Source: Candidatus Poribacteria bacterium (GTDB taxonomy: Bacteria; Poribacteria; WGA-4E; WGA-3G). From it: a DNA stretch of 64,000 bases. The notes under the pieces were generated by a model, which saw nothing but the letters and a program-made list of their open reading frames with translations, was not told the DNA's origin and did not search any database. Shown here in pieces: positions 11,584 through 57,410 of this stretch. The stretch spans positions 32,001 to 96,000 of the forward strand of contig CAXXUA010000002.1 in NCBI GenBank assembly GCA_963663765.2, in the 5' to 3' direction. The position numbers and the translations under genes were made by a program. The stretch's first letter is position 1, and each line of letters opens with the position of its first letter.

Positions 11584-11612
11584 AGTATACTGATTATGTG
11601 TTTTGTTGTCAA
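11584..11612 (-). promoter_or_regulatory. Sigma70-type promoter for the SDR operon
   Basis: Minus strand TTGACA-17 nt-TATACT about 65 bp upstream of the ATG at 11520. Confidence 0.7.
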
Positions 11613-29974: not shown

Positions 29975-32572
29975 ATGAAAGGAAATATTATTGTGAAAAG
30001 GAACCAGATTTTTATATTATTGACACTTTTTGTTGTTTCTTCGTTTTTTCAAACTAATGTATTTGCCCAAGATTCACCACAATGGCATCTGCCTGAAGGT
30101 GCTGTTAAACGGCTTGGGAAAGGTTGGTTATATGAAATCCAATATTCTCCAGATGGAACGCAGCTTGCTGCTGCAGGTTCACTCGGTGTTTGGCTTTATG
30201 ACACAGCAACCGATAAAGAGATTAGACTATTGAATGGATTTGGATGGGGTGTTTCAGCACTCACTTATTCTCCTGATGGAAAAGTCCTTGTTTCTGGGAG
30301 CATAGATGGAAACATCCGTTTTTGGGAACCGAATACTGGTGAACTCATACGGACAATTGACGCACATTGGGCGAGTATCCGAAGTCTCGTGTTTAACGCT
30401 GATGGGTCAATACTCGCAAGTGGAAGTAGAGATAGAACCGTACGTCTGTGGGATTCTGAGACAGGTGAACTCCTGCGGACACTTAGAGGACATATTGATG
30501 GTCTTAACAGCGTCACTTTCAGTGCTGATGGCACCAAAATCATCAGTGGTGGTCGAGACGATACTATCAAAATATGGGATGTTGAATCAGGGGAACTACT
30601 TCGGACGCTTGAAGCACATCGTGACAATGTCGAAAGTGTCGTTACCAGTCCAGATGGTAAAACGCTTGCAAGTTGTGATTTGAACGCAATTATCCATTTG
30701 TGGGATACGGATACTTGGACAATTAAGGCAACATTACATGGTCATTCGTCTCATATCTATGACATGAAATTTATTCCGGATGGGAGTATCCTTGCAAGTG
30801 CTGGTGAAGATGATACCGTCCGATTGTGGGATGCGTCCACAGGTGAACATTTACACACACTCACTGGACACACAGCAGATGTGTTCGGACTTGCTTGGAC
30901 GCCTGACGGTTCAGTGCTCACAAGTGGTGCGTGGGATGCCTCTATTCGTTCTTGGGACCCCATCACTGGTAATCATCTGAAAACCATTACCGGTCATACG
31001 GATGTTGTTGTGAGTGTCACCTTTAGTGCAGATGGCAGCATTCTCGCCACACGCAGTTGGGACAAAACCATTCGTCTCTGGGATGCTGACACGGGACAAC
31101 TTAGGCACACCCTTATCGGTCACCAAGATGATGTTGACATTGTTGTTTTTAGTCCGGATGGCAGAACTCTCGCAAGTGGTAGCCAAGACAATACTGTTCG
31201 TCTATGGGATGCTATTACAGGTGAACATATAAAAACGCTCAGAGGGCATTATTCATATCTGATTAGTCTTGCGTTTAGTTCTGATGGTAGCATACTGGCA
31301 AGTGGCAGTGAGGACGATAACATCCTTTTGTGGAATGTTGAGACAGGTAGATACATGGGAGGATTAAGGGAACATGAGGCAGGTGTTGAGACACTTGCTT
31401 TCAGTCCTGATAACACGATGCTTGCAAGTGGTAGTCGTGACGATAAAATAATTATATGGGATCTTGAAACACGCGATGCAATACACACCATAACTGAACA
31501 TGAGGACGATGTTTGGACTGTTGCTTTCAGTCCAGATGGTACAAGACTCGCAAGTGGTGGAGGCGACAAAGTCTCCTTATGGGATGTTGATACTGCAGAA
31601 CTTCTACAAACTTTCCGCAGACCACTTGACCGTGAAATACCAATAGGCGCGCCGGAAGAACTGATCGGAGACCTGCCTACAGACCTGCCTGCAAATGCTA
31701 CAAGTATCGTCTTTAGTCCTGATGGAAAAGTTCTTGTGACTGGAAGTTATGACAGAACCATCCGCTTATGGGACATTGACACGGGCGAACAACTGAGAAC
31801 TCTTGAAGGGCATGCTTATTCTATAACAAGTGTCGCTGTTAGTCCGGATGGCACTGCGATTGCAAGCGGAAGTGTCGACGGTACTGTCATCCTGTGGGCA
31901 TTCCCACTGCCGTTGAGCGTAGAACAAGTCCTTACAGTTTTCGCTGATGTGAACAATGACGGTGTTATAAATATACTGGATATAGTGTTTATTGCAGCGA
32001 ACTACGGTGCTACCGGTGACAATCCAGCGGATCTAAATGGCGATGGAGAAGTGAATCTATTGGATCTATTCTTGATTGCTAATGTATTAGATAACATAGA
32101 TTCAGCACCAGCAAAGCATACGGTTACAAGTGAAGAACTGACTGCAGCTCAAGTGCAAACGTGGTTGAAACTTGCCAAACAAGATTCGCTACAAACACTG
32201 AATGTATCTAAAACTGACGTACTTACTTATCAACGCGGGATTCAAGTGCTGGAACAGATTTTAGTTACGTTAGTACCAAAAGAAACATCGCTTCTTGCTA
32301 ACTACCCAAATCCATTCAACCCGGAGACATGGATACCATATCAGTTGGCAGTACCTGCCGATGTCAGCATCTCAATCCATGCTGCAGATGGTAAATTGGT
32401 CAGAAAGTTGTCGTTAGGAAACCTTCCTGCAGGCACTTATCAAGATCGTTCCCGTGCTGCGTATTGGGATGGCAAAAACGAGTTTGGCGAGAAGGTTGCA
32501 AGTGGTGTGTATTTCTATACACTTACTGCAGGCGATTTTACCGCTACGCGCAAAATGTTGATACTAAAATAG
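29975..32572 (+). CDS. WD40 + dockerin + FlgD-Ig-like C-terminal tail protein
   Basis: About 14 WD repeats, DVNNDGVINILD, and the NYPNPFNPETWIPY...RKMLILK tail. Confidence 0.92.
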   Translation: MKGNIIVKRNQIFILLTLFVVSSFFQTNVFAQDSPQWHLPEGAVKRLGKGWLYEIQYSPDGTQLAAAGSLGVWLYDTATDKEIRLLNGFGWGVSALTYSPDGKVLVSGSIDGNIRFWEPNTGELIRTIDAHWASIRSLVFNADGSILASGSRDRTVRLWDSETGELLRTLRGHIDGLNSVTFSADGTKIISGGRDDTIKIWDVESGELLRTLEAHRDNVESVVTSPDGKTLASCDLNAIIHLWDTDTWTIKATLHGHSSHIYDMKFIPDGSILASAGEDDTVRLWDASTGEHLHTLTGHTADVFGLAWTPDGSVLTSGAWDASIRSWDPITGNHLKTITGHTDVVVSVTFSADGSILATRSWDKTIRLWDADTGQLRHTLIGHQDDVDIVVFSPDGRTLASGSQDNTVRLWDAITGEHIKTLRGHYSYLISLAFSSDGSILASGSEDDNILLWNVETGRYMGGLREHEAGVETLAFSPDNTMLASGSRDDKIIIWDLETRDAIHTITEHEDDVWTVAFSPDGTRLASGGGDKVSLWDVDTAELLQTFRRPLDREIPIGAPEELIGDLPTDLPANATSIVFSPDGKVLVTGSYDRTIRLWDIDTGEQLRTLEGHAYSITSVAVSPDGTAIASGSVDGTVILWAFPLPLSVEQVLTVFADVNNDGVINILDIVFIAANYGATGDNPADLNGDGEVNLLDLFLIANVLDNIDSAPAKHTVTSEELTAAQVQTWLKLAKQDSLQTLNVSKTDVLTYQRGIQVLEQILVTLVPKETSLLANYPNPFNPETWIPYQLAVPADVSISIHAADGKLVRKLSLGNLPAGTYQDRSRAAYWDGKNEFGEKVASGVYFYTLTAGDFTATRKMLILK

Positions 32573-32584
32573 TATCAAATGACC

Positions 32585-32698
32585 ATAGGATAGCTGGAAT
32601 GCTGATGTTTATTAGCTTCGCAACCATCGTTGATGAGTGGGTTAAGTTGGAATCGCTATCATTCTCTTTGAGTAATGATGCGATTAACGGTAAACATT
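32585..32698 (-). ncRNA. Putative structured RNA at the distal end of the DUF1670 element
   Basis: Lies just downstream of a near-consensus promoter. Minus-strand stems: atgttta/taaacat closing stem, aatcgc-atcatt-ctc(aaa)gag-aatgat-gcgatt hairpin, and catc(aac)gatg hairpin. Confidence 0.5.
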
Positions 32699-32703
32699 CT
32701 TAG

Positions 32704-32732
32704 AGTATAGCAAAACAAGTAGCAGTTGTCAA
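32704..32732 (-). promoter_or_regulatory. Near-consensus sigma70 promoter pointing toward the element end
   Basis: Minus strand TTGACA actgctacttgttttgc TATACT (17-nt spacer, extended TG). Confidence 0.75.
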
Positions 32733-32801
32733 TCCTATTTTCAAGGAAACTGCCTCGGTTTTGCTGAATAATGTTCGTCTGGTGGAACAGGAGGTTTAGT
32801 A

Positions 32802-33686
32802 TCATTGTTCTTCTCCTTGGCGTGTTTTTGCATCGTTTGCAGATGAATTGGCAAGGTTTGCATCCATAGCTTGAAGTTGGTGCTGTGGAATAAGGTCAAG
32901 ATATTGAGTGATAACGCGTTTAGAAAGTCGTGTAATCTGTGAGATTGTATCAATATCTGCAGTTGCGTTGCGAACGACTTTTATGCTCTCATAGTCGCGA
33001 ATGTATCGGTCAACTGCCTCTTTAGAGTGTTTGGTCTTTGCGGCAATTCTGGGGGTGAGATGTCCTTGAAGATAGAGGGTGATGATCTCTTTCTTGTGGG
33101 TAATAGCACCTGATAAATCATGGATGTTGCCGCGAGTGGGCAAGATGTCGCCAGTGGTTTTTTGCCATTCATTGACATAATCACAGACAACAGCATCGCA
33201 GACGTTCAGCAAGACAGCTAAATCGAGTTGTGTCAATAAGGCACCTTGGTCATAAGCTTGATGACACCAGCGGACTAAGCGATTGATTCGCAGTTGTCGG
33301 GAGGTAAATCCGTTTCGAAAAGATTCAATATCCTCGGTAGCGAGATAGGTCAAGATGATGGGTTTCATCCGAGTTTTGACGATGGACTTCCCTCTTTCTG
33401 GATGTTCATCAATAGGGACGGCCATCCAAACGAGTTGTCCATAACTCAGGAAACGCTCATCTGTGAGTTGATCGCCGGTGGCGAGTTTCTCCAAGGGGAG
33501 GGTAATTACGAAATAGTCCTCAACGGTCTTGAGAATATCATCAACAATGGCAGTGGCAGTGACTTCGCCTTTGTCATACCCGTAGTCATTGAGAAAGCGA
33601 TGGATAAGCAACTGTCGTAGGGACTTATCGTTGATGCGTCTGAATTTTTTTTCGTTGATTTGCGTGCGGGTTAGAGGTTTGCTCAT
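32802..33686 (-). CDS. DUF1670-like HTH protein (paralog 2)
   Basis: RLVRWCHQAYDQGALLTQLDLAVLL, PTRGNIHDLSGAITHK and HSKEAVDRYIRDY motifs. Start overlaps the upstream stop (ATGA). Confidence 0.8.
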   Translation of the reverse strand: MSKPLTRTQINEKKFRRINDKSLRQLLIHRFLNDYGYDKGEVTATAIVDDILKTVEDYFVITLPLEKLATGDQLTDERFLSYGQLVWMAVPIDEHPERGKSIVKTRMKPIILTYLATEDIESFRNGFTSRQLRINRLVRWCHQAYDQGALLTQLDLAVLLNVCDAVVCDYVNEWQKTTGDILPTRGNIHDLSGAITHKKEIITLYLQGHLTPRIAAKTKHSKEAVDRYIRDYESIKVVRNATADIDTISQITRLSKRVITQYLDLIPQHQLQAMDANLANSSANDAKTRQGEEQ

Positions 33687-34483
33687 GAGAGGTCCCCCTT
33701 TTTTGTGTCCTCTGGTTCAGGGTGAAGGAGTTGGGTCATGCGATCGGTGTGTTGATATTCCTTGAACAGCGAGAGATACTCGCGTATCAACCGGTCAGAG
33801 AGATGAGAAATCAGGCGTATCTGTGCATTAGGGAAGCCTTGATGATGGAGCGTGGCAACTTGTGTGAAATCTCTCAAGTAGCGGTAGACAGCCCGTTCGC
33901 TGTGGTTTGTTTTTTGCTCGATTTCGGTGAAGGTATAGGCTTTGAAATATAACTCCAAGATCTGTGTCTTATGAGAAGTGCCGGGACCCATGTCGTGTTT
34001 CGTCCCGCGCGTCATAACGAAATATCCTTCCTGCTTCAACTGGCGAATGTCGCGTTTGACTGTAGCAGGACTGGTGGTCAATAGGACCGCTAAATCCTCA
34101 TAGCTCAGTAAGGAATCTTGGTCATAAGCTTCTTTGGTCAATCGGAGGACCCGATGTCGTCTGAGTCCTGCGAGCCCATAAGTTGCTAAGACCTCAAGAT
34201 CAGCGTTTGTGTCATTGAGGGTGAGCCGACAGGAGATTTTTTTCGCTAAAGCGATGTGTTTCCCTGCGGGTTCCTCAGCGGCGACAGCCTCGTAGCAGAT
34301 TTGTCCTGATGTCAGTTTCACATCGGTATGTTGTTCAAAGTAAGTAGAAATCTGTTTATAGTAGGCTTCAGCAACAATAGGCATTAGATTAAAGTCTGCT
34401 GAAATCTTCTGAATAATAGCGGCTCTGGCATTCTTGGATTCGAGCCGGGTAATACCGTAGGCGGTATCCTTTTTGCGGTTCAT
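33683..34483 (-). CDS. DUF1670-like HTH protein (paralog 1)
   Basis: RLTKEAYDQDSLLSYEDLAVLL, TRGTKHDMGPGTSHK and HSERAVYRYLRDF motifs. Likely start is ATG 34483 after GGAGG. Confidence 0.8.
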   Translation of the reverse strand: MNRKKDTAYGITRLESKNARAAIIQKISADFNLMPIVAEAYYKQISTYFEQHTDVKLTSGQICYEAVAAEEPAGKHIALAKKISCRLTLNDTNADLEVLATYGLAGLRRHRVLRLTKEAYDQDSLLSYEDLAVLLTTSPATVKRDIRQLKQEGYFVMTRGTKHDMGPGTSHKTQILELYFKAYTFTEIEQKTNHSERAVYRYLRDFTQVATLHHQGFPNAQIRLISHLSDRLIREYLSLFKEYQHTDRMTQLLHPEPEDTKKGDLS

Positions 34484-34616
34484 GTTGACCTCCATGAATA
34501 GATTAACGGTATCCGAATACATCTACTCGTTAGTATAACTCATACTAAAAGTATAACTCATGGGGTCATTTGATACAAACTATAAATAGTAAAACCCGAT
34601 GCGCTATTAGGTTGTC

Positions 34617-35159
34617 GTGGTAACGTATCATGTATGCGTTACCACTCATATTGTATATACACAATTGAGAGGAAGAACAATAAATATTGAACTTGAACAA
34701 ATTTCAATTGATGAAAAACCTGTTCTCCGTAATCTGATGCAGTTGTGTTTTCACGATTACAGTGAGTTTAATAACGAGGATGTTGGACCTTATGGACTGT
34801 TCAACTATAAATATCTCGACTACTATTGGACAGAACCTGATCGTTTTGCTTACTTCGTAAAAGTTGAAGGAAAATTGGCAGGTTTTGCTCTCGGCATGCA
34901 TAACCGTTTAGTGGATGGAGAGAACGTAAATATTCTCTCCGAGTTCTTCATTCTCAGAAAATACAGACGAAAGGGGATAGGAATAAAGACTGCCCATAGT
35001 TTATTCAGAAAATATTCCGGTAAATGGTCAATTGTACAAGAAAAATATAATTATCCTGCCCAAACTTTTTGGAGAAAAGTTATTAACGAATATACAAAAG
35101 GCAACTTCACGGAAAGGCAACAAGAGAAAGGACCAATCCAAGAGTTTGAGACACCATAA
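34617..35159 (+). CDS. GNAT-family N-acetyltransferase
   Basis: LAGFAL, EFFILRKYRRKGIG and AQTFWRKVI motifs. Start uncertain. Confidence 0.85.
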   Translation: MVTYHVCVTTHIVYTQLRGRTINIELEQISIDEKPVLRNLMQLCFHDYSEFNNEDVGPYGLFNYKYLDYYWTEPDRFAYFVKVEGKLAGFALGMHNRLVDGENVNILSEFFILRKYRRKGIGIKTAHSLFRKYSGKWSIVQEKYNYPAQTFWRKVINEYTKGNFTERQQEKGPIQEFETP

Positions 35160-35287
35160 CAATATCCCTATGCATGCATACTGAATACCGAAACATGGAA
35201 CTTGTAGAAGTAAATTCCATCAATTAACTTGTTCTATGGAGGATAACTGTTGAAACGATTTTTTAGTTAAAATCCGAAATATATTTA

Positions 35288-36160
35288 CAGCGTATCTCAT
35301 AAATACTTTATTAGTAGTTGAATACAAGCGAGATGAACAAATCCTAAATAGTTCATAACTTTATGTTCCCACCTCACTACCAACCTCCGAAAATCCTCAA
35401 GCCAACTGAAAAAACGCTCCACTTTGTAGCGACGCTTATACCGGCGTAATCGACGACCATCCTGTGTCACAGCGGACTTACGATTCTTTTTATGCGGGGC
35501 TACCATTTCAATGCCACGACACCTGAGTGTTTTATCTAATGGATCCGAATCATATGCTTTGTCGCCTATCAATACTGCTGGCATTGCCGATACAAAACTC
35601 ACATCTAATATCGGTTCAACCAGACGCACCTCATGCCGTGATGCGCTGGCAACCAAAACACTCACAGGTCTCCCACACTTTTCTGTAATCGCCATCAGTT
35701 TCGTCCCTTTACCACACTTCGTTTTACCGACACACTCTCCCCCTTTTTCGCAGGAACGAACTTGGCATCAATACAACATTCACTCAGATGCAGTTTACGC
35801 TGTTTGTCGAGTCTAACTGCTATCATTTCAAACACACTTTTTAGCGTCCCATCAATACACCATTGCTGGAAACGACGATGACACGTTTGATACGATGGAT
35901 ACTTCTTCGGTAAATCACGCCAAGGTGCTCCCGTCCGCAACATCCAAAGTATCCCGTCTAATACTTCTCTATTATCACGCCAAGGTCTCCCGCGCTTACC
36001 TGAAGGAAGTTCGAGGCAACAAAGGTTCAATGATTTCCCATTCTTTATCACTCAGTTCCATACAAACCATCTCCTAACTCTTACATTTTCTCAAAAGTCT
36101 AACAGAGATGATTACTTATTAAAAGTTTTTTTATAAGTTGACTATTTATGAGATACGCTC
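35288..36160 (-). mobile_element. IS5-family (IS427-like) insertion sequence, 873 bp, frameshifted
   Basis: 17-bp TIR cagcgtatctcataaat / atttatgagatacgctc flanked by TA. Split transposase with W.LRTGAPWRDLP, GDKAYDS and Y..R..VERFF motifs. Confidence 0.93.
35297..36061 (-). pseudogene. IS5 transposase
   Basis: The natural start ATG 36061 (MELSDKEWEIIEPLLP) reaches a stop after 21 codons, implying a frameshift near 36015. A second shift occurs at the AAAAAGGGGG slippery site near 35745. Confidence 0.8.
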
Positions 36161-54500: not shown

Positions 54501-57394
54501 TCCCTGTTGCTGGTGGACAGGAAACGCTAATCGCATCAACAGCAGCACCACTGACTGAGGTAACACTGAATGGGAGTGTCGTCACACTCACAATAAACGG
54601 TGCAATCTTCAAACGATCCAGAATTGACATCGGTAATGCTATAACGGTTTCTGGAGTAAATGGTGTCACTTTCCACTGGTTTGATATAGACCGAGTCAGC
54701 GATACTAATTTGACAGTTGAACTCTCATTTAATGGCAACATTGATGAAGATGCCACGTTGACCTTTACTGTTGGTGCGGATGCTATAGCTGGATATGATG
54801 GTGATGCCCTCATCACACAACTACCGGTTACCGCGCTGCAGGAATCAGTCTCTGCTACAACTGAGTCGTCCTTGGCAGAGGCAACATTGGATGGAAGCAT
54901 CGTCACACTCACGCTCAGCGGATGTACTTTTGAACGATCACTCTTCAACATCAGAAATGGGGTGACAGTTTCTGGTGTTGATGGAGTTAAGATCTATAGT
55001 TTTGGGATTGACCGTGTCAGCGATACGCAGATAAATGTTGAGCTTGAATTCAACGGAGATTTTGATACAGATGCTACATTAACATTTACCGTAGGTGTGA
55101 ATGCGATTTTACGGTATAACGGTGATCCCTTGACTGCACAACTCACTGTAACTGGGGGGCAGGAAACGGTAATCGCATCAACAGCAGCACCACTGACTGA
55201 GGTAACACTGAATGGGAGTGTCGTCACACTCACGCTCAGTGGTGCTAAATACACCCGCAATACCTTTGATCTTAGAGACGGTGTCTCCGTTTCTGGTATT
55301 GAGGGTGTAATAATTCCGTGGCACGACCCAAGGAAAAAAAGTGATACTGAAATTACAATTGAATTGGAATTTGATGGGACAGACTTTGATACAACTTCCA
55401 CGCTGACTTTTACTGTTGAATCAGATGCCTTTGCAGGTTACAACGGTCCTGCTCTCACGACACAGATATCTGTTTCCGAAGTGGTAGAATCATTGCTTGC
55501 CTCAAGCGCATCACCGTTGACAGAAGCGACATTAGATGAAAGTGTCGTTACCCTGACCCTCATCGGCAGGAATTATACCCGGACTATTTATGACATTAGA
55601 GATGCTGTGTCAGTCTCAGGTATTTCTGGTGTAACATTCCCGTGGAATGAACCGGTTAAAAAGAGTGATACTGAAATCACGATGAAACTGGAGTTTGATG
55701 GGGATATGACAAGTGATGGCACACTGACCTTTACTGTTGGATCGGATGCTATCGCTGGTTATAATGGTTCGGTACTGACTGCACAAGTGTCTGTCTCTGC
55801 CACAAGTACAACAACACCATCAAACCGTGCGCCAGTATTTACTGAAGGTAGCAGCACCACGCGCTCAGTAGCAGAGAACACGGCGTCGGGTGTAAATATC
55901 GGCAGTGTGGTTGCTGCCACAGATGCGGATACCGGTGATACGCTCACGTATAGTCTGGGTGGCACAAATGCATCAGCGTTCAGCATTGTCAGCAATTCGG
56001 GGCAGCTGCAAACTAAAGCTGCACTTGACTACGAAACGATGACATCCTACTCTGTCATCATCTCTGTTACGGATGGTCGTGGCGGGAGTGATAGCATCAC
56101 CGTGGCAATCAACATCACTGATGTAAACGAAGCTATTCCAAACCGTGCGCCAATATTTACCGAAGGTAGCAGCACCACGCGCTCAGTAGCAGAGAACACC
56201 GCATCGGGTGTAAATATCGGCAGTGCGGTTGCTGCCACAGATGCGGATAGGAATACGCTTACGTATAGTCTGGGTGGCACAAATGCATCAGCGTTCAGCA
56301 TTGTCAGCAATTCGGGGCAGCTGCAAACTAAAGCTGCACTTGACTACGAAACGATGACATCCTACTCCGTCATCGTCTCTGTTACGGATGGAAATGGCGG
56401 GAGTGATAGCATTATAGTCACAATTAATATCACTGATGTGTCTGAGACACCTACAAATGGCAGACCATCCATCAGTGTTTCTGCGGATACGACATTAACA
56501 GAGGCAACACTTGATGGTACAGTGGTTACCCTCACGCTAACAAGTGGCACTTATGAAAGCGCATTCTGGAATTATCAAAAGGTATCTGTCTCTGGGATCA
56601 CAGGTGTGACTTTTAATGACTTTTTTGATGTTGAGCGCGCGAGTAGCACAGAACTCACCGTCGAACTGACATTTGATGGGAACATGACCACTGATGGCAC
56701 GCTGACCTTTACCGTTGAATCGGATGCGATTGTGGATTTTGATGATTCGGCACTGACTGCGCAAATATCAGTCTCCGCCGTCAGTGAGTCTGTCACTGCT
56801 TCGCCCGCTACATTGACCGAGGCGTCCCTTGATGGTGCAAAGGTTACCCTCACGCTCAGCGGACAGATATTTGAGCGATCTATTCATTACATTAGAGATG
56901 CTGTGTCAGTCTCAGGTATATCCGGTGTAACATTCCCTTGGCATGACCCGGATAAAAAGAGTGATACCGAAATCACGATGGAACTGGAGTTTGATGGGGA
57001 TATGACAAGTGATGGCACACTGACCTTTATGGTTGGAGCGGATGCTATCGCGGGCTATAATGGTTCGGCACTGACTGCACAAGTGTCTGTCACAGCAAGC
57101 CAAGAGAACGCTCTCGGGGCAAACTTCCCAAACCCATTCAATCCAGAAACGTGGATACCGTATCAGTTATCCAAAGCATCTAATGTTAGCTTGACGATCT
57201 ACAATATGCGTGGGGTTGTCGTTCGGGAATCGAAGTTAGGGCAGAAAGCAGCGGGTGTGTATCAAAGCCGTAGTCGTGCTATCCATTGGGATGGTAGAAA
57301 CGAAATCGGTGAGAAGGTCGCGAGCGGCTTGTATTTCTACACACTTACAGCGGGTGATTTTACCGCAACGCGCAAGATGTTGATAAGGAAATAG
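51515..57394 (+). CDS. Large secreted zinc-metalloprotease-like protein with 4 cadherin-like domains, 10 copies of a ~105-aa repeat and a C-terminal tail
   Basis: HEIAHGLGF, SSYTHLDE, LMTP, repeated LTE.TL.GSVVTLTL...VSVSGI.GV...LEFDG.FD...TLTFTV..DAI..Y.G units and NPFNPETWIPY. The track starts at 51488. Confidence 0.88.
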   Translation: MNFLRKLFSITLIACSLLGMTSHAMCLDKKIEQLSGPSNAQTTMLTPVSQDDTEHLTILYGTQENMNTSVPPPQILRRYNSENNLNTEQSQFIVTYIGFTDEAQEAFQYAVDIWDSLIRTQVPIRINASFIDFGGFENNNIILGGARPADWKSPGSLNLWFVDALSDMQAGKDLSDGAPDIITKFNSNQEVNWYFGIDGNTPSGKMDFVSTVIHEIAHGLGFSSFARIENSSNDIFSLSVAQGTLRGKSPKFPQIYDFFVENGSGTALISFFDPSSGLVEQFTSNNIYWNGKIGVKANGGILPHLYAPSIWEQGSSYTHLDEDSFPAGDENSLMTPYFGRQEAIHNPGSITLGMLEDMGWSINKAPVFVDGTNTTRTLVENAGSDVNIGRPIFAMDDNNDNLTYQLSGTDAALFVIDSTTGQVKTNIGQEYNRTSYTVTVIVSDGRLITEIIVIIQVSTTTVVTPNNNPPIFTDGSHTTRTVVENTTSGVDIGDPITATDADNHYLTYTLSGVDAALFEINDATGQLKTKVALDYETNRTYTVTLTVSDGSLTDTITVTINVTDKDVETTPTLTLISHPLMETTLNGSLVTLKLNHSVYENWLINPVTVSGIPGVTVKTSNVVRAADTELRLQLTFDGTDFDTNATLTFTVKTDAIENYSDSPLKATILVTAAQESVNASTITPPTETTLNGTVVTLTLSGAVYESKYTVGNNVSVSGITGVSVNRLNVVRISGTQVNVALKFDGTDFDSNAMLTITVGADAIASYNGTELVAQLPVIAVVEENPSIIAFVSESLTETTLNESLVTLTLSSDVYMQSSSVINRSIQVSGIAGVTVRQSDVARVSDTKVTVKITYDGTNFDTDSKLIFTVTADAIENYTGPALISVIPVTAVIESKPTVTVVTSQPLTEANLNENVILLTLNNGTYVQSLFDIEDSLTVSGISGVTLNRYGVRRVSDTDISVELEFDGNFDSNAILTFSVGADAIVGYEGADLIIQLPVAGGQETLIASTAAPLTEVTLNGSVVTLTINGAIFKRSRIDIGNAITVSGVNGVTFHWFDIDRVSDTNLTVELSFNGNIDEDATLTFTVGADAIAGYDGDALITQLPVTALQESVSATTESSLAEATLDGSIVTLTLSGCTFERSLFNIRNGVTVSGVDGVKIYSFGIDRVSDTQINVELEFNGDFDTDATLTFTVGVNAILRYNGDPLTAQLTVTGGQETVIASTAAPLTEVTLNGSVVTLTLSGAKYTRNTFDLRDGVSVSGIEGVIIPWHDPRKKSDTEITIELEFDGTDFDTTSTLTFTVESDAFAGYNGPALTTQISVSEVVESLLASSASPLTEATLDESVVTLTLIGRNYTRTIYDIRDAVSVSGISGVTFPWNEPVKKSDTEITMKLEFDGDMTSDGTLTFTVGSDAIAGYNGSVLTAQVSVSATSTTTPSNRAPVFTEGSSTTRSVAENTASGVNIGSVVAATDADTGDTLTYSLGGTNASAFSIVSNSGQLQTKAALDYETMTSYSVIISVTDGRGGSDSITVAINITDVNEAIPNRAPIFTEGSSTTRSVAENTASGVNIGSAVAATDADRNTLTYSLGGTNASAFSIVSNSGQLQTKAALDYETMTSYSVIVSVTDGNGGSDSIIVTINITDVSETPTNGRPSISVSADTTLTEATLDGTVVTLTLTSGTYESAFWNYQKVSVSGITGVTFNDFFDVERASSTELTVELTFDGNMTTDGTLTFTVESDAIVDFDDSALTAQISVSAVSESVTASPATLTEASLDGAKVTLTLSGQIFERSIHYIRDAVSVSGISGVTFPWHDPDKKSDTEITMELEFDGDMTSDGTLTFMVGADAIAGYNGSALTAQVSVTASQENALGANFPNPFNPETWIPYQLSKASNVSLTIYNMRGVVVRESKLGQKAAGVYQSRSRAIHWDGRNEIGEKVASGLYFYTLTAGDFTATRKMLIRK

Positions 57395-57410
57395 TATCAA
57401 ATGACCATAG
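57394..57410. other. Isolated copy of the DUF1670-element end
   Basis: gtatcaaatgaccatag is identical to 32572-32588 and again supplies the G of a TAG stop. Confidence 0.75.

Follow-up and report, generated by a model that had tools for sequence, protein, structure and literature searches.

A DUF1670 mobile element of Poribacteria carries a conserved predicted outward promoter and a structured non-coding 3' end

The 3' end of the DUF1670 element

The DNA analyzed here (the window) is a stretch of 64,000 nucleotides of Candidatus Poribacteria bacterium (assembly GCA_963663765.2, contig CAXXUA010000002.1, positions 32,001 to 96,000 of the forward strand). It holds an insertion sequence (IS)-like mobile element with two overlapping open reading frames (ORF1 and ORF2), both of which encode DUF1670 proteins (PF07900, E about 1e-61 each), as had been stated in an earlier note made from the sequence. 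The element is convergent with a host gene coding for a WD40-repeat protein with a C-terminal sorting domain of the type IX secretion system (T9SS) type. Downstream of both DUF1670 genes, and on the same strand, our comparisons show a predicted outward promoter that is conserved among related elements and is followed by around 125 nt of conserved, apparently structured non-coding sequence. The coordinates of all these features are given in Table 1.

Table 1. Position of the DUF1670 element, its 3' end features and the adjoining host gene in the window.
Feature	Position	Strand	Remarks
IS-like mobile element, two DUF1670 genes	32569..34583	minus	2,015 bp; predicted borders
ORF1, DUF1670 protein	33683..34522	minus	279 aa; Pfam PF07900, E 4.5e-61
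ORF2, DUF1670 protein	32802..33686	minus	294 aa; Pfam PF07900, E 1.9e-61
5' terminal inverted repeat	34564..34583	minus	ATAGTTTGTATCAAATGACC
3' terminal inverted repeat	32569..32584	minus	ATAGTATCAAATGACC in gene orientation
Conserved box	32734..32745	minus	CTTGAAAATAGG; just upstream of the -35
-35 hexamer	32732-32727	minus	TTGACA; sequence and consensus scan
Extended -10	32704..32712	minus	TGc TATACT; TG 32712-32711, TATACT 32709-32704
Predicted non-coding transcript body	32572..32697	minus	start predicted from the -10 position
Hairpin 1	32651..32685	minus	AATCGCATCATT ... AATGATAGCGATT; minimum free energy and centroid folds
Conserved unpaired box	32633..32640	minus	CCACTCAT; between both hairpins; alignments A1 and A2
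Terminal hairpin	32589..32628	minus	15 positions per arm, loop AATAAACATC; fold and covariation
Host gene, WD40-repeat protein with T9SS-type C-terminal sorting domain	29975..32572	plus	convergent with the element; Pfam

The promoter had been described in the earlier note as TTGACA-17-TATACT located 3' of the second DUF1670 gene, and the consensus scan of positions 31800-35200 corroborated it: with 17 nt between the two hexamers, it was the sole 11/12 match to the sigma-70 consensus among the four promoter-like sites in that region, and the TG of its extended -10 was absent from the other three. Shuffled versions of the same region contained a mean of 7.3 promoter-like sites, all of them weaker. 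Within the whole window, TTGACA-N17-TATACT with no more than one mismatch occurs four times versus 0.41 expected, a number that none of 100 shuffles of the window reached. Another perfect TTGACA-N17-TATACT lies at 11584-11612 on the minus strand.

Conservation was evaluated on a set built by a protein-based scan, which gave 68 poribacterial loci and from them 42 distinct ORF2-linked 3' ends; a DNA search with positions 32560-32760 produced matches in 38 of 61 related genomes. The arrangement TTGNNN-17/18-TGn-TATACT was present in 41 of the 42 ends, at a fixed distance from the element tip that amounts to 131-136 nt in a long type and to 99-103 nt in a short type of end. All 41 promoter-carrying ends have TATACT together with TGn, and the -35, which was lost only in L110, reads TTGACA in 36 of them, TTGGCA in three, and TTGATA and TTGAGA in one each. 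Among 53 promoter-bearing sequences, the -35 had a majority fraction of 0.96 and TGn plus -10 one of 0.97, values that are inflated for the hexamers because these sequences were chosen by a promoter regular expression, so that the independent figure is 41 of 42. In the spacer and in the first 12 nt past the -10 this fraction was 0.63 and 0.66, respectively, and the 14 columns preceding the -35, which include the CTTGAAAATAGG box, had a mean of 0.77. The promoter persists across subfamilies in which ORF2 is only around 80% identical and in which the spacer and hairpin 1 can no longer be aligned. Hexamers that are kept next to a spacer that drifts are the pattern expected from selection on a promoter, and the CTTGAAAATAGG box may serve as operator or as an UP-like element.

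Transcription from this promoter is predicted to start near 32697, according to the position of the -10. The seventh base past the -10 is the A of an ATG, and the frame opened there has 12 codons. The absence of a substantial ORF after the promoter, claimed in the earlier note, could be extended to the relatives, as no conserved ORF was found in the RNA region among 54 distinct sequences. The frame at the predicted start reaches 40-41 codons in about 13 of these and is absent in many. Starting at the start-site ATG and ending at a TGA inside the terminal repeat, this longer frame is seen in L063-L065, L069, L072 and L073, and further in L076-L078, L086, L094 and L101. There were no matches to Rfam up to E=1 between 31500 and 35500, and ARAGORN identified no tRNA or tmRNA in the predicted transcript region. 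No terminator-like site was predicted on the minus strand after the RNA in the scan of 31800-35200, so that read-through into the antisense strand of the host gene, which had also been anticipated, is plausible. Such a transcript would cross the terminal inverted repeat, for which a perfect 13-nt match was found between 32572-32584 and 34564-34576.

The 126-nt RNA from 32697 to 32572 has a predicted folding energy of -28.9 kcal/mol, with a z-score of -3.87 and none of 200 shuffles folding as well. The long hairpin described previously (hairpin 1) appears in both the minimum free energy and the centroid folds. This was not the case for the proposed "closing stem" (atgttta/taaacat), which is absent from both; its 3' half, TAAACAT, is the loop of the terminal hairpin, a structure that the earlier note had missed and that dominates every fold made. 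In alignment A1 the leader that would form the other half of the stem varies (ATGTTTA, ACGTTTA, GTGTGGA, TGCGTAT and others), while the loop is constant (AATAAACATC).

The loss of both promoter and fold in related elements, named in the earlier note as the outcome that would speak against its proposal, was not what we found. Besides the promoter being kept in 41 of 42 ends, the terminal hairpin showed 79.1% of cells paired over 60 sequences versus 24-49% in slid controls, with seven pairs having changes on both sides versus 2-4, 20 cells with such changes versus 5-9, and a covariation score of 0.156 versus 0.03-0.08. In hairpin 1, the helices had 75, 78 and 98% of cells paired in the 41 long-type sequences; the 11 short-type sequences have an unrelated hairpin, ATGTGC-loop-GCACAT, at the same place. 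Covariation was counted on hand-defined helices, which were adopted after RNAalifold gave no consensus for the long-type sequences, and subfamilies differ in this 3' region by register shifts and indels. Altogether, the predicted structure of the terminal hairpin is supported by covariation, and that of hairpin 1 moderately so.

The fold z-score was below -2 in 35 of the 54 sequences. In terms of strand, the mean was -2.46 for the promoter strand and -1.68 for the opposite one, the promoter strand being better in 36 sequences, and copies of the window type favour it. The region is structured, and the molecule that folds may be the RNA, the DNA or the mRNA of the host.

The mobile element and its insertion site

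The element appears to be delimited by two imperfect terminal repeats, ATAGTATCAAATGACC and ATAGTTTGTATCAAATGACC, and the 5' start TTATAGTTTGTATC is common to all 53 distinct poribacterial insertions for which both ends are available. Its own genome (6.35 Mb in 15 contigs) contains four full copies with 91-100% identity, along with a 5'-truncated copy, a fragment consisting of just the 5' end, a solo 3' end of 200 nt, an internally deleted copy in which 42 nt of the 5' end are joined to 360 nt of the 3' end, and three very short tip relics. The sequencing runs that hold the element are sponge metagenomes. Across the phylum, PF07900 was found in 40 of 151 searched genomes, with 1 to 18 matches per genome, a patchy, IS-like distribution. 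Many DUF1670 homologues lie on contigs of around 2 kb, as expected of repeats that break assemblies.

Both proteins gave weak helix-turn-helix (HTH) sub-matches beside DUF1670 in Pfam. The AlphaFold2 model of ORF2 is mostly helical, with a pLDDT (the predicted local distance difference test) of 85; Foldseek found no PDB fold match for it at E <= 0.001, the best partial matches being HTH domains. No similarity of DUF1670 to transposases or recombinases beyond the HTH type was detected with Pfam, NCBIfam, PDB sequences or Foldseek. The possibility of a tyrosine recombinase was considered in view of conserved R, H, K, H and Y residues and discarded, because the motif looks like a helix-turn-helix and no such enzyme was among the 50 best Foldseek matches. 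At rank 38 (E 1.0) is 2r0q, a serine recombinase regulatory complex. A tblastn search with ORF2 against plasmids gave no match. The element thus combines multiple copies, defined ends, terminal inverted repeats and a 2-bp duplication, all traits of insertion sequences, with proteins that lack a recognisable transposase or recombinase. Full-text searches returned no published work on DUF1670 or PF07900, and none of the papers found on insertion sequences and transposases of Poribacteria deals with this element, judging from the search listing.

Fused proteins with three or two DUF1670 modules also exist (P0133, P0134, P0140 and P0146, of 930-952 aa, and P0181, P0235, P0264 and P0268, of 519-544 aa), and given these forms the working unit would seem to consist of two to three modules. 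In the window, the GNAT gene flanking the element is adjoined by a split IS4/IS5-type transposase in two adjoining frames (DUF4096, then DDE_Tnp_1; 35297-36051, minus strand).

The last 100 aa of the host protein matched FlgD_ig (3.5e-9) and Por_Secre_tail (2.2e-5; at 25.1 bits, under the 27-bit cut-off of this family) in Pfam. All 3' ends of the element in its own genome abut the stop codon of a convergent gene with a T9SS-type sorting domain. The first four bases of the 3' repeat correspond to the third base of the last Lys codon of the host gene plus its stop TAG (32570-32572). In a survey of the 66 sorting-domain gene ends of this genome, the 11 that precede an element tip all have TAG as stop, with AAA as last codon in ten, while the 55 preceding unrelated sequence are divided between TAG (29) and TAA (26), and have AAA in 28 cases and AAG in 24. 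On the host-gene side, the left junction reads AAATA(G) in 53 of the 53 insertions; on the far side, AA is followed by A or G and then by TAA, TAG or TGA in 42 of them, which amounts to an intact native "Lys-stop". The relatives are not syntenic at the far-side GNAT gene, and paralogous sorting-domain gene ends were used as the unoccupied reference; such sites (AAATAG followed by CAGTCAAC...) match the far flank of copy L006. The duplicated dinucleotide is AA in poribacterial copies and CG in the relatives L143/L144.

From these data we infer that insertion takes place between the second and third bases of the last sense codon and duplicates 2 bp (window positions 32567-32584 and 34564-34589). 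The element would bring its own A plus TAG, leaving the host protein unchanged, with C-terminal Lys and stop kept, and the native "A/G + stop" would survive on the far side of the element. Silencing of the target gene, the alternative offered in the earlier note, is a possible effect of the promoter; the restoration of the last codon and stop of the host gene argues against silencing as the purpose of the element.

Since the tips now carry the stop codon, short relics of them remain at sorting-domain genes; they measure 10-110 nt and are found even in genomes with no PF07900 match. A second sorting-domain gene of the window (57392-57410; L012; G000:C2:89394 onward) shows AAATAG and a 16-nt tip relic, TATCAAATGACCATAG, followed by unrelated sequence, and similar relics of 10-40 nt are present at C6:448429, C13:168996 and C3:219812. 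In the 5' flank of L095 (about 2095-2127) a full element adjoins an older relic tip (GGTTATTTGATACTAT next to TTATAGTTT...), which suggests that the tip recreates the target and that repeated insertion at one site is possible. A second type of target was observed in one poribacterial lineage, where the element (L103-L106 and L116) is not at the end of a sorting-domain gene but in the loop of a palindrome (GAAACCGAGTTTT ... AAAACTCGGTTTC).

Relatives and derivatives without the promoter module

Distant DUF1670 pairs from metagenomes keep the order ORF1-ORF2. Several of them share the terminal repeat and the insertion point with the window element. L146, whose proteins are 65% and 55% identical to those of ORF1 and ORF2 in the window, overlaps the stop codon (TAG) of a gene with a Por_Secre_tail domain (Pfam E 1e-8), and L143/L144 (63% and 59%) overlap the stop of another (Pfam E 1e-10 in L144). 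L147 (50% and 49%) abuts a gene end read as ...MLLLK(stop) in a flank that is interrupted by stops and N. In L146 and L147 just 11-22 nt separate the ORF2 stop from the tip, and in L143/L144 the 3' region, of about 195 nt, is unrelated and has no sigma-70 match. As these relatives have the same target and ends without having the module, neither the choice of target nor the recognition of the ends needs the poribacterial module. The promoter and hairpin 1 are accordingly an accessory module specific to the poribacterial lineage. GC-rich elements (L133-L138 and L141) have about 200 nt 3' of ORF2 with very long hairpins, of around 30 bp in L141 (L141:3296-3511), ahead of a tip with the structure GGCTC-N4-GAGCC-TAT. 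A structured 3' end recurs in some DUF1670 lineages and is missing in others.

Derivatives lacking the promoter and hairpin 1 were identified in several genomes. The mini-derivative L031 is reduced to 16 nt of 5' sequence plus the terminal hairpin and tip, and L035, L037 and L040, which have one internal deletion in common, keep CTCAT, the CCACTCAT box, the terminal hairpin and the tip, with the promoter gone. The last roughly 70 nt of the RNA region overlap this minimal transposon end, and the CCACTCAT box may be a protein-binding site within it. Two relics from different genomes, L024 and L026, have the same foreign sequence (...AAGTCCTGGAGG...) attached within hairpin 1, some 60-110 nt upstream of the tip; it may be another small repeat or belong to a composite non-autonomous element.

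Possible roles of the 3' end and comparison with known systems

The explanation we favour, in which taken as a whole we have moderate confidence, is that the conserved sigma-70-type outward promoter (UP-like box, TTGACA, 17-18 nt, TGn-TATACT) gives rise to a regulatory junction transcript of the Pout or RNA-OUT kind. The promoter would fire outward from near 32697, and the resulting RNA would span hairpin 1, the unpaired CCACTCAT box and the 15-bp terminal hairpin, pass through the terminal repeat at 32572 and extend, in antisense, into the convergent T9SS-cargo gene of the host. The template of its last 70 nt or so would double as the cis-acting transposon end, while the promoter and hairpin 1 would be outside the core transposition machinery and the module would not specify the target. 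Insertion would displace the terminator of the host gene, and the RNA could play its role via antisense or transcriptional interference against read-in from that gene; it may also control the activity of the element itself.

Several observations weigh against this explanation. The proposed regulatory role is deduced from architecture, and the start of the transcript is predicted from the -10. RNA data consisted of Logan contigs of four RNA runs, out of 18 runs with small shares of the stretch (data sets X2 and X3 gave identical figures and are probably a single one); such contigs carry no starts, ends or strand, and neither cover nor its lack is read here as evidence on expression. They cover the element, ORFs included, with a summed depth of 45-48 in the bin 32606-32706 versus around 100-580 in the ORF bins. 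With respect to structure, RNAalifold on the 41 long-type sequences returned three trivial pairs at -0.31 kcal/mol and no consensus. Neither strand was clearly favoured by the counts of G-U and A-C pairs, which were 92 and 74 for the terminal hairpin and 43 and 45 for hairpin 1, and in the short type the opposite strand folds as well as the promoter strand or better. Without a decisive strand signal, the hairpins could act as DNA or in the mRNA of the host.

The first of these options, in which the hairpins and the CCACTCAT box are sites of binding or recognition in a DNA-level end, seems unlikely to us as a full account. The promoter would then be incidental or of junction type, driving the DUF1670 genes across the junction of an excised circle or tandem, or plainly outward as a classical Pout. 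The lack of strand bias in the G-U and A-C counts and the derivatives that keep the terminal hairpin and tip without the promoter agree with it, and an outward TTGACA-17-TACAAT spans the terminal repeat in L150 (1975-2035) and L151 (1650-1710), which carry a distant DUF1670 pair (33-39% identity), although the -10 may belong there to the element or to a shared flank, a matter that two sequences cannot decide. However, hairpin 1 and the promoter, dispensable in derivatives, are conserved in 41 of 42 autonomous ends, and no circle or head-to-tail junction was seen, the tip-to-head arrangement of L095 being a nested insertion beside a relic tip.

A role on the host side is quite unlikely. Here the hairpins, on the other strand, would constitute a replacement 3' untranslated region, a stabiliser or a terminator for the host mRNA after insertion cuts off the terminator of the gene, and the promoter would be a separate feature. 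Neither hairpin is followed by a T-run in gene orientation, the scan revealed no plus-strand terminator at 32572-32750, and for the gene-sense strand of the window subfamily the fold is not superior to that of shuffles (z -0.95). This possibility would fit with the restored last codon and stop of the host, the AAATA(G) of all left junctions and the relic tips that stay on sorting-domain genes, also where the genome has no PF07900 match, as well as with the antisense strand of the short type, which folds at z -4 to -7.

It is improbable, too, that the transcript limits transposition as a trans-acting, RNA-OUT-like antisense RNA directed to the leader or ribosome-binding site of ORF1, or as a decoy that titrates a protein. 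An outward promoter, a hairpin RNA and no ORF are a fitting architecture for it, the 13-nt repeat at the 5' end has its complement in the RNA tail, and in the window copy TACCGTTAATC recurs, in the same sense, in the ORF1 leader (repeat D4). Yet this motif is not kept in other subfamilies, and the predicted promoter of ORF1 starts transcription downstream of the 5' repeat. Moreover, in a crude duplexfold analysis with 100-nt partners, duplex energies with the 5' region of each element were no better than those of shuffles, with z from -2.4 to +1.7 over 13 elements and no common site.

The idea put forward in the earlier note, that of a guide, bridge or omega-like RNA, in which a scaffold bound by DUF1670 has loops or a flank-derived 3' extension that specify DNA, appears very improbable after this analysis. 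In layout, the predicted RNA is similar to the RNAs that IS200/IS605 elements encode at their right end and to the bridge RNAs found 3' in the IS1111 group, with a promoter of its own, a scaffold lying within the end and a transcript that would pass over this end into the flank; insertion is highly site-specific, and no catalytic fold was recognised in DUF1670. Against it, relatives without the module share target and terminal repeat, derivatives without the promoter occur in several genomes, and the terminal inverted repeats and 2-bp duplication are those of a cut-and-paste element. Both genes match only DUF1670 and HTH families in Pfam, with no TnpB, IscB or DEDD recombinase. The search for loops matching target or donor gave only identities of 5-7 nt between RNA loops and flanks, none of them covarying as read from the alignments, and no covarying complementarity of the RNA to the target, the donor end or the 5' untranslated region was found. 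What stands of the earlier interpretation is thus an outward promoter and a structured, conserved non-coding 3' end, and not the guide function. A variant of it, by which DUF1670 would have recruited the transcript as a cofactor in the poribacterial lineage only, with the hairpins as scaffold and the antisense 3' extension guiding homing or retention (in the manner of an omega-RNA, the effector being a helix-turn-helix protein), is highly doubtful because relatives without the module hit the same target. Just as hard to sustain is a leaderless small-protein gene opening at the start-site ATG and ending at the TGA in the terminal repeat, since the 40-41-codon frame, intact in about 13 of 54 sequences with many replacements between intact versions, is shortened in the window (12 codons) and in L057, L058 and L122 (10-11 codons), lacks a start codon in L055, L056, L003 and others, and is absent in the short type.

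The RNA unit is a well-conserved non-coding module without previous description. It offers a starting point for experiments on how a mobile element that is itself uncharacterised, in sponge symbionts that are uncultured, may control itself or its neighbour, and the evidence against a guide role spares effort on an RNA-guided hypothesis. The setting may matter more than the RNA: IS-like DUF1670 pairs with no recognisable transposase fold that would rebuild codon and stop at the ends of T9SS-cargo genes make DUF1670 a candidate new transposition or recombination protein, and by rebuilding the stop codon a transposon would neatly avoid harm to the genes at whose ends it sits.

Several known systems can be compared with this unit. 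The omega-RNAs of TnpB (IS200/IS605) and IscB are structured RNAs of the 3' end that extend across the element end into the flank, as the RNA of the DUF1670 element is predicted to do; here, in contrast, there is no TnpB or IscB gene and no Rfam match, the module is dispensable for target choice, and the element is bounded by terminal inverted repeats and a 2-bp duplication. The bridge RNAs of IS110/IS1111 are folded RNAs of 100-200 nt, transcribed from a sigma-70 promoter in a non-coding end, downstream of the recombinase gene in the IS1111 group, and associated with site-specific insertion. The DUF1670 element shares with them the sigma-70 promoter, the putative folded RNA in a non-coding end and the site-specific insertion, but it has no DEDD recombinase and no loops matching target and donor, and relatives of the same specificity lack the module. 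The unit is not a member of either group, as the defining genes and pairings are missing.

The similarity is closer with the pOUT of IS10/Tn10, an element-encoded promoter near one end that directs outward the synthesis of RNA-OUT, a short, stably folded non-coding regulatory RNA. Both have an outward promoter of the element near its end and a folded, non-coding RNA, predicted in our case. In the DUF1670 element, however, the unit is located in the 3' end, a long way from where the first gene starts, its RNA showed no complementarity to the ORF1 leader in the crude duplex test, and the template of the RNA shares sequence with the cis-acting end, from which transcription would run on into the host gene. 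As for the Pout promoters of IS1, IS2, IS3, IS5, IS256 and ISAba1, they consist of a complete -35/-10 inside the end that drives transcription into flanking DNA, and the DUF1670 element likewise has a complete, outward-facing -35/-10 inside its end. It differs in the roughly 125 nt of conserved, structured sequence between promoter and end, and in a fixed orientation of insertion that would make the outward transcript antisense to the neighbour gene, so that activation of this gene would not be possible. On balance, and judging from its architecture, the RNA unit would work most like the classical outward promoters and antisense RNAs of insertion sequences.

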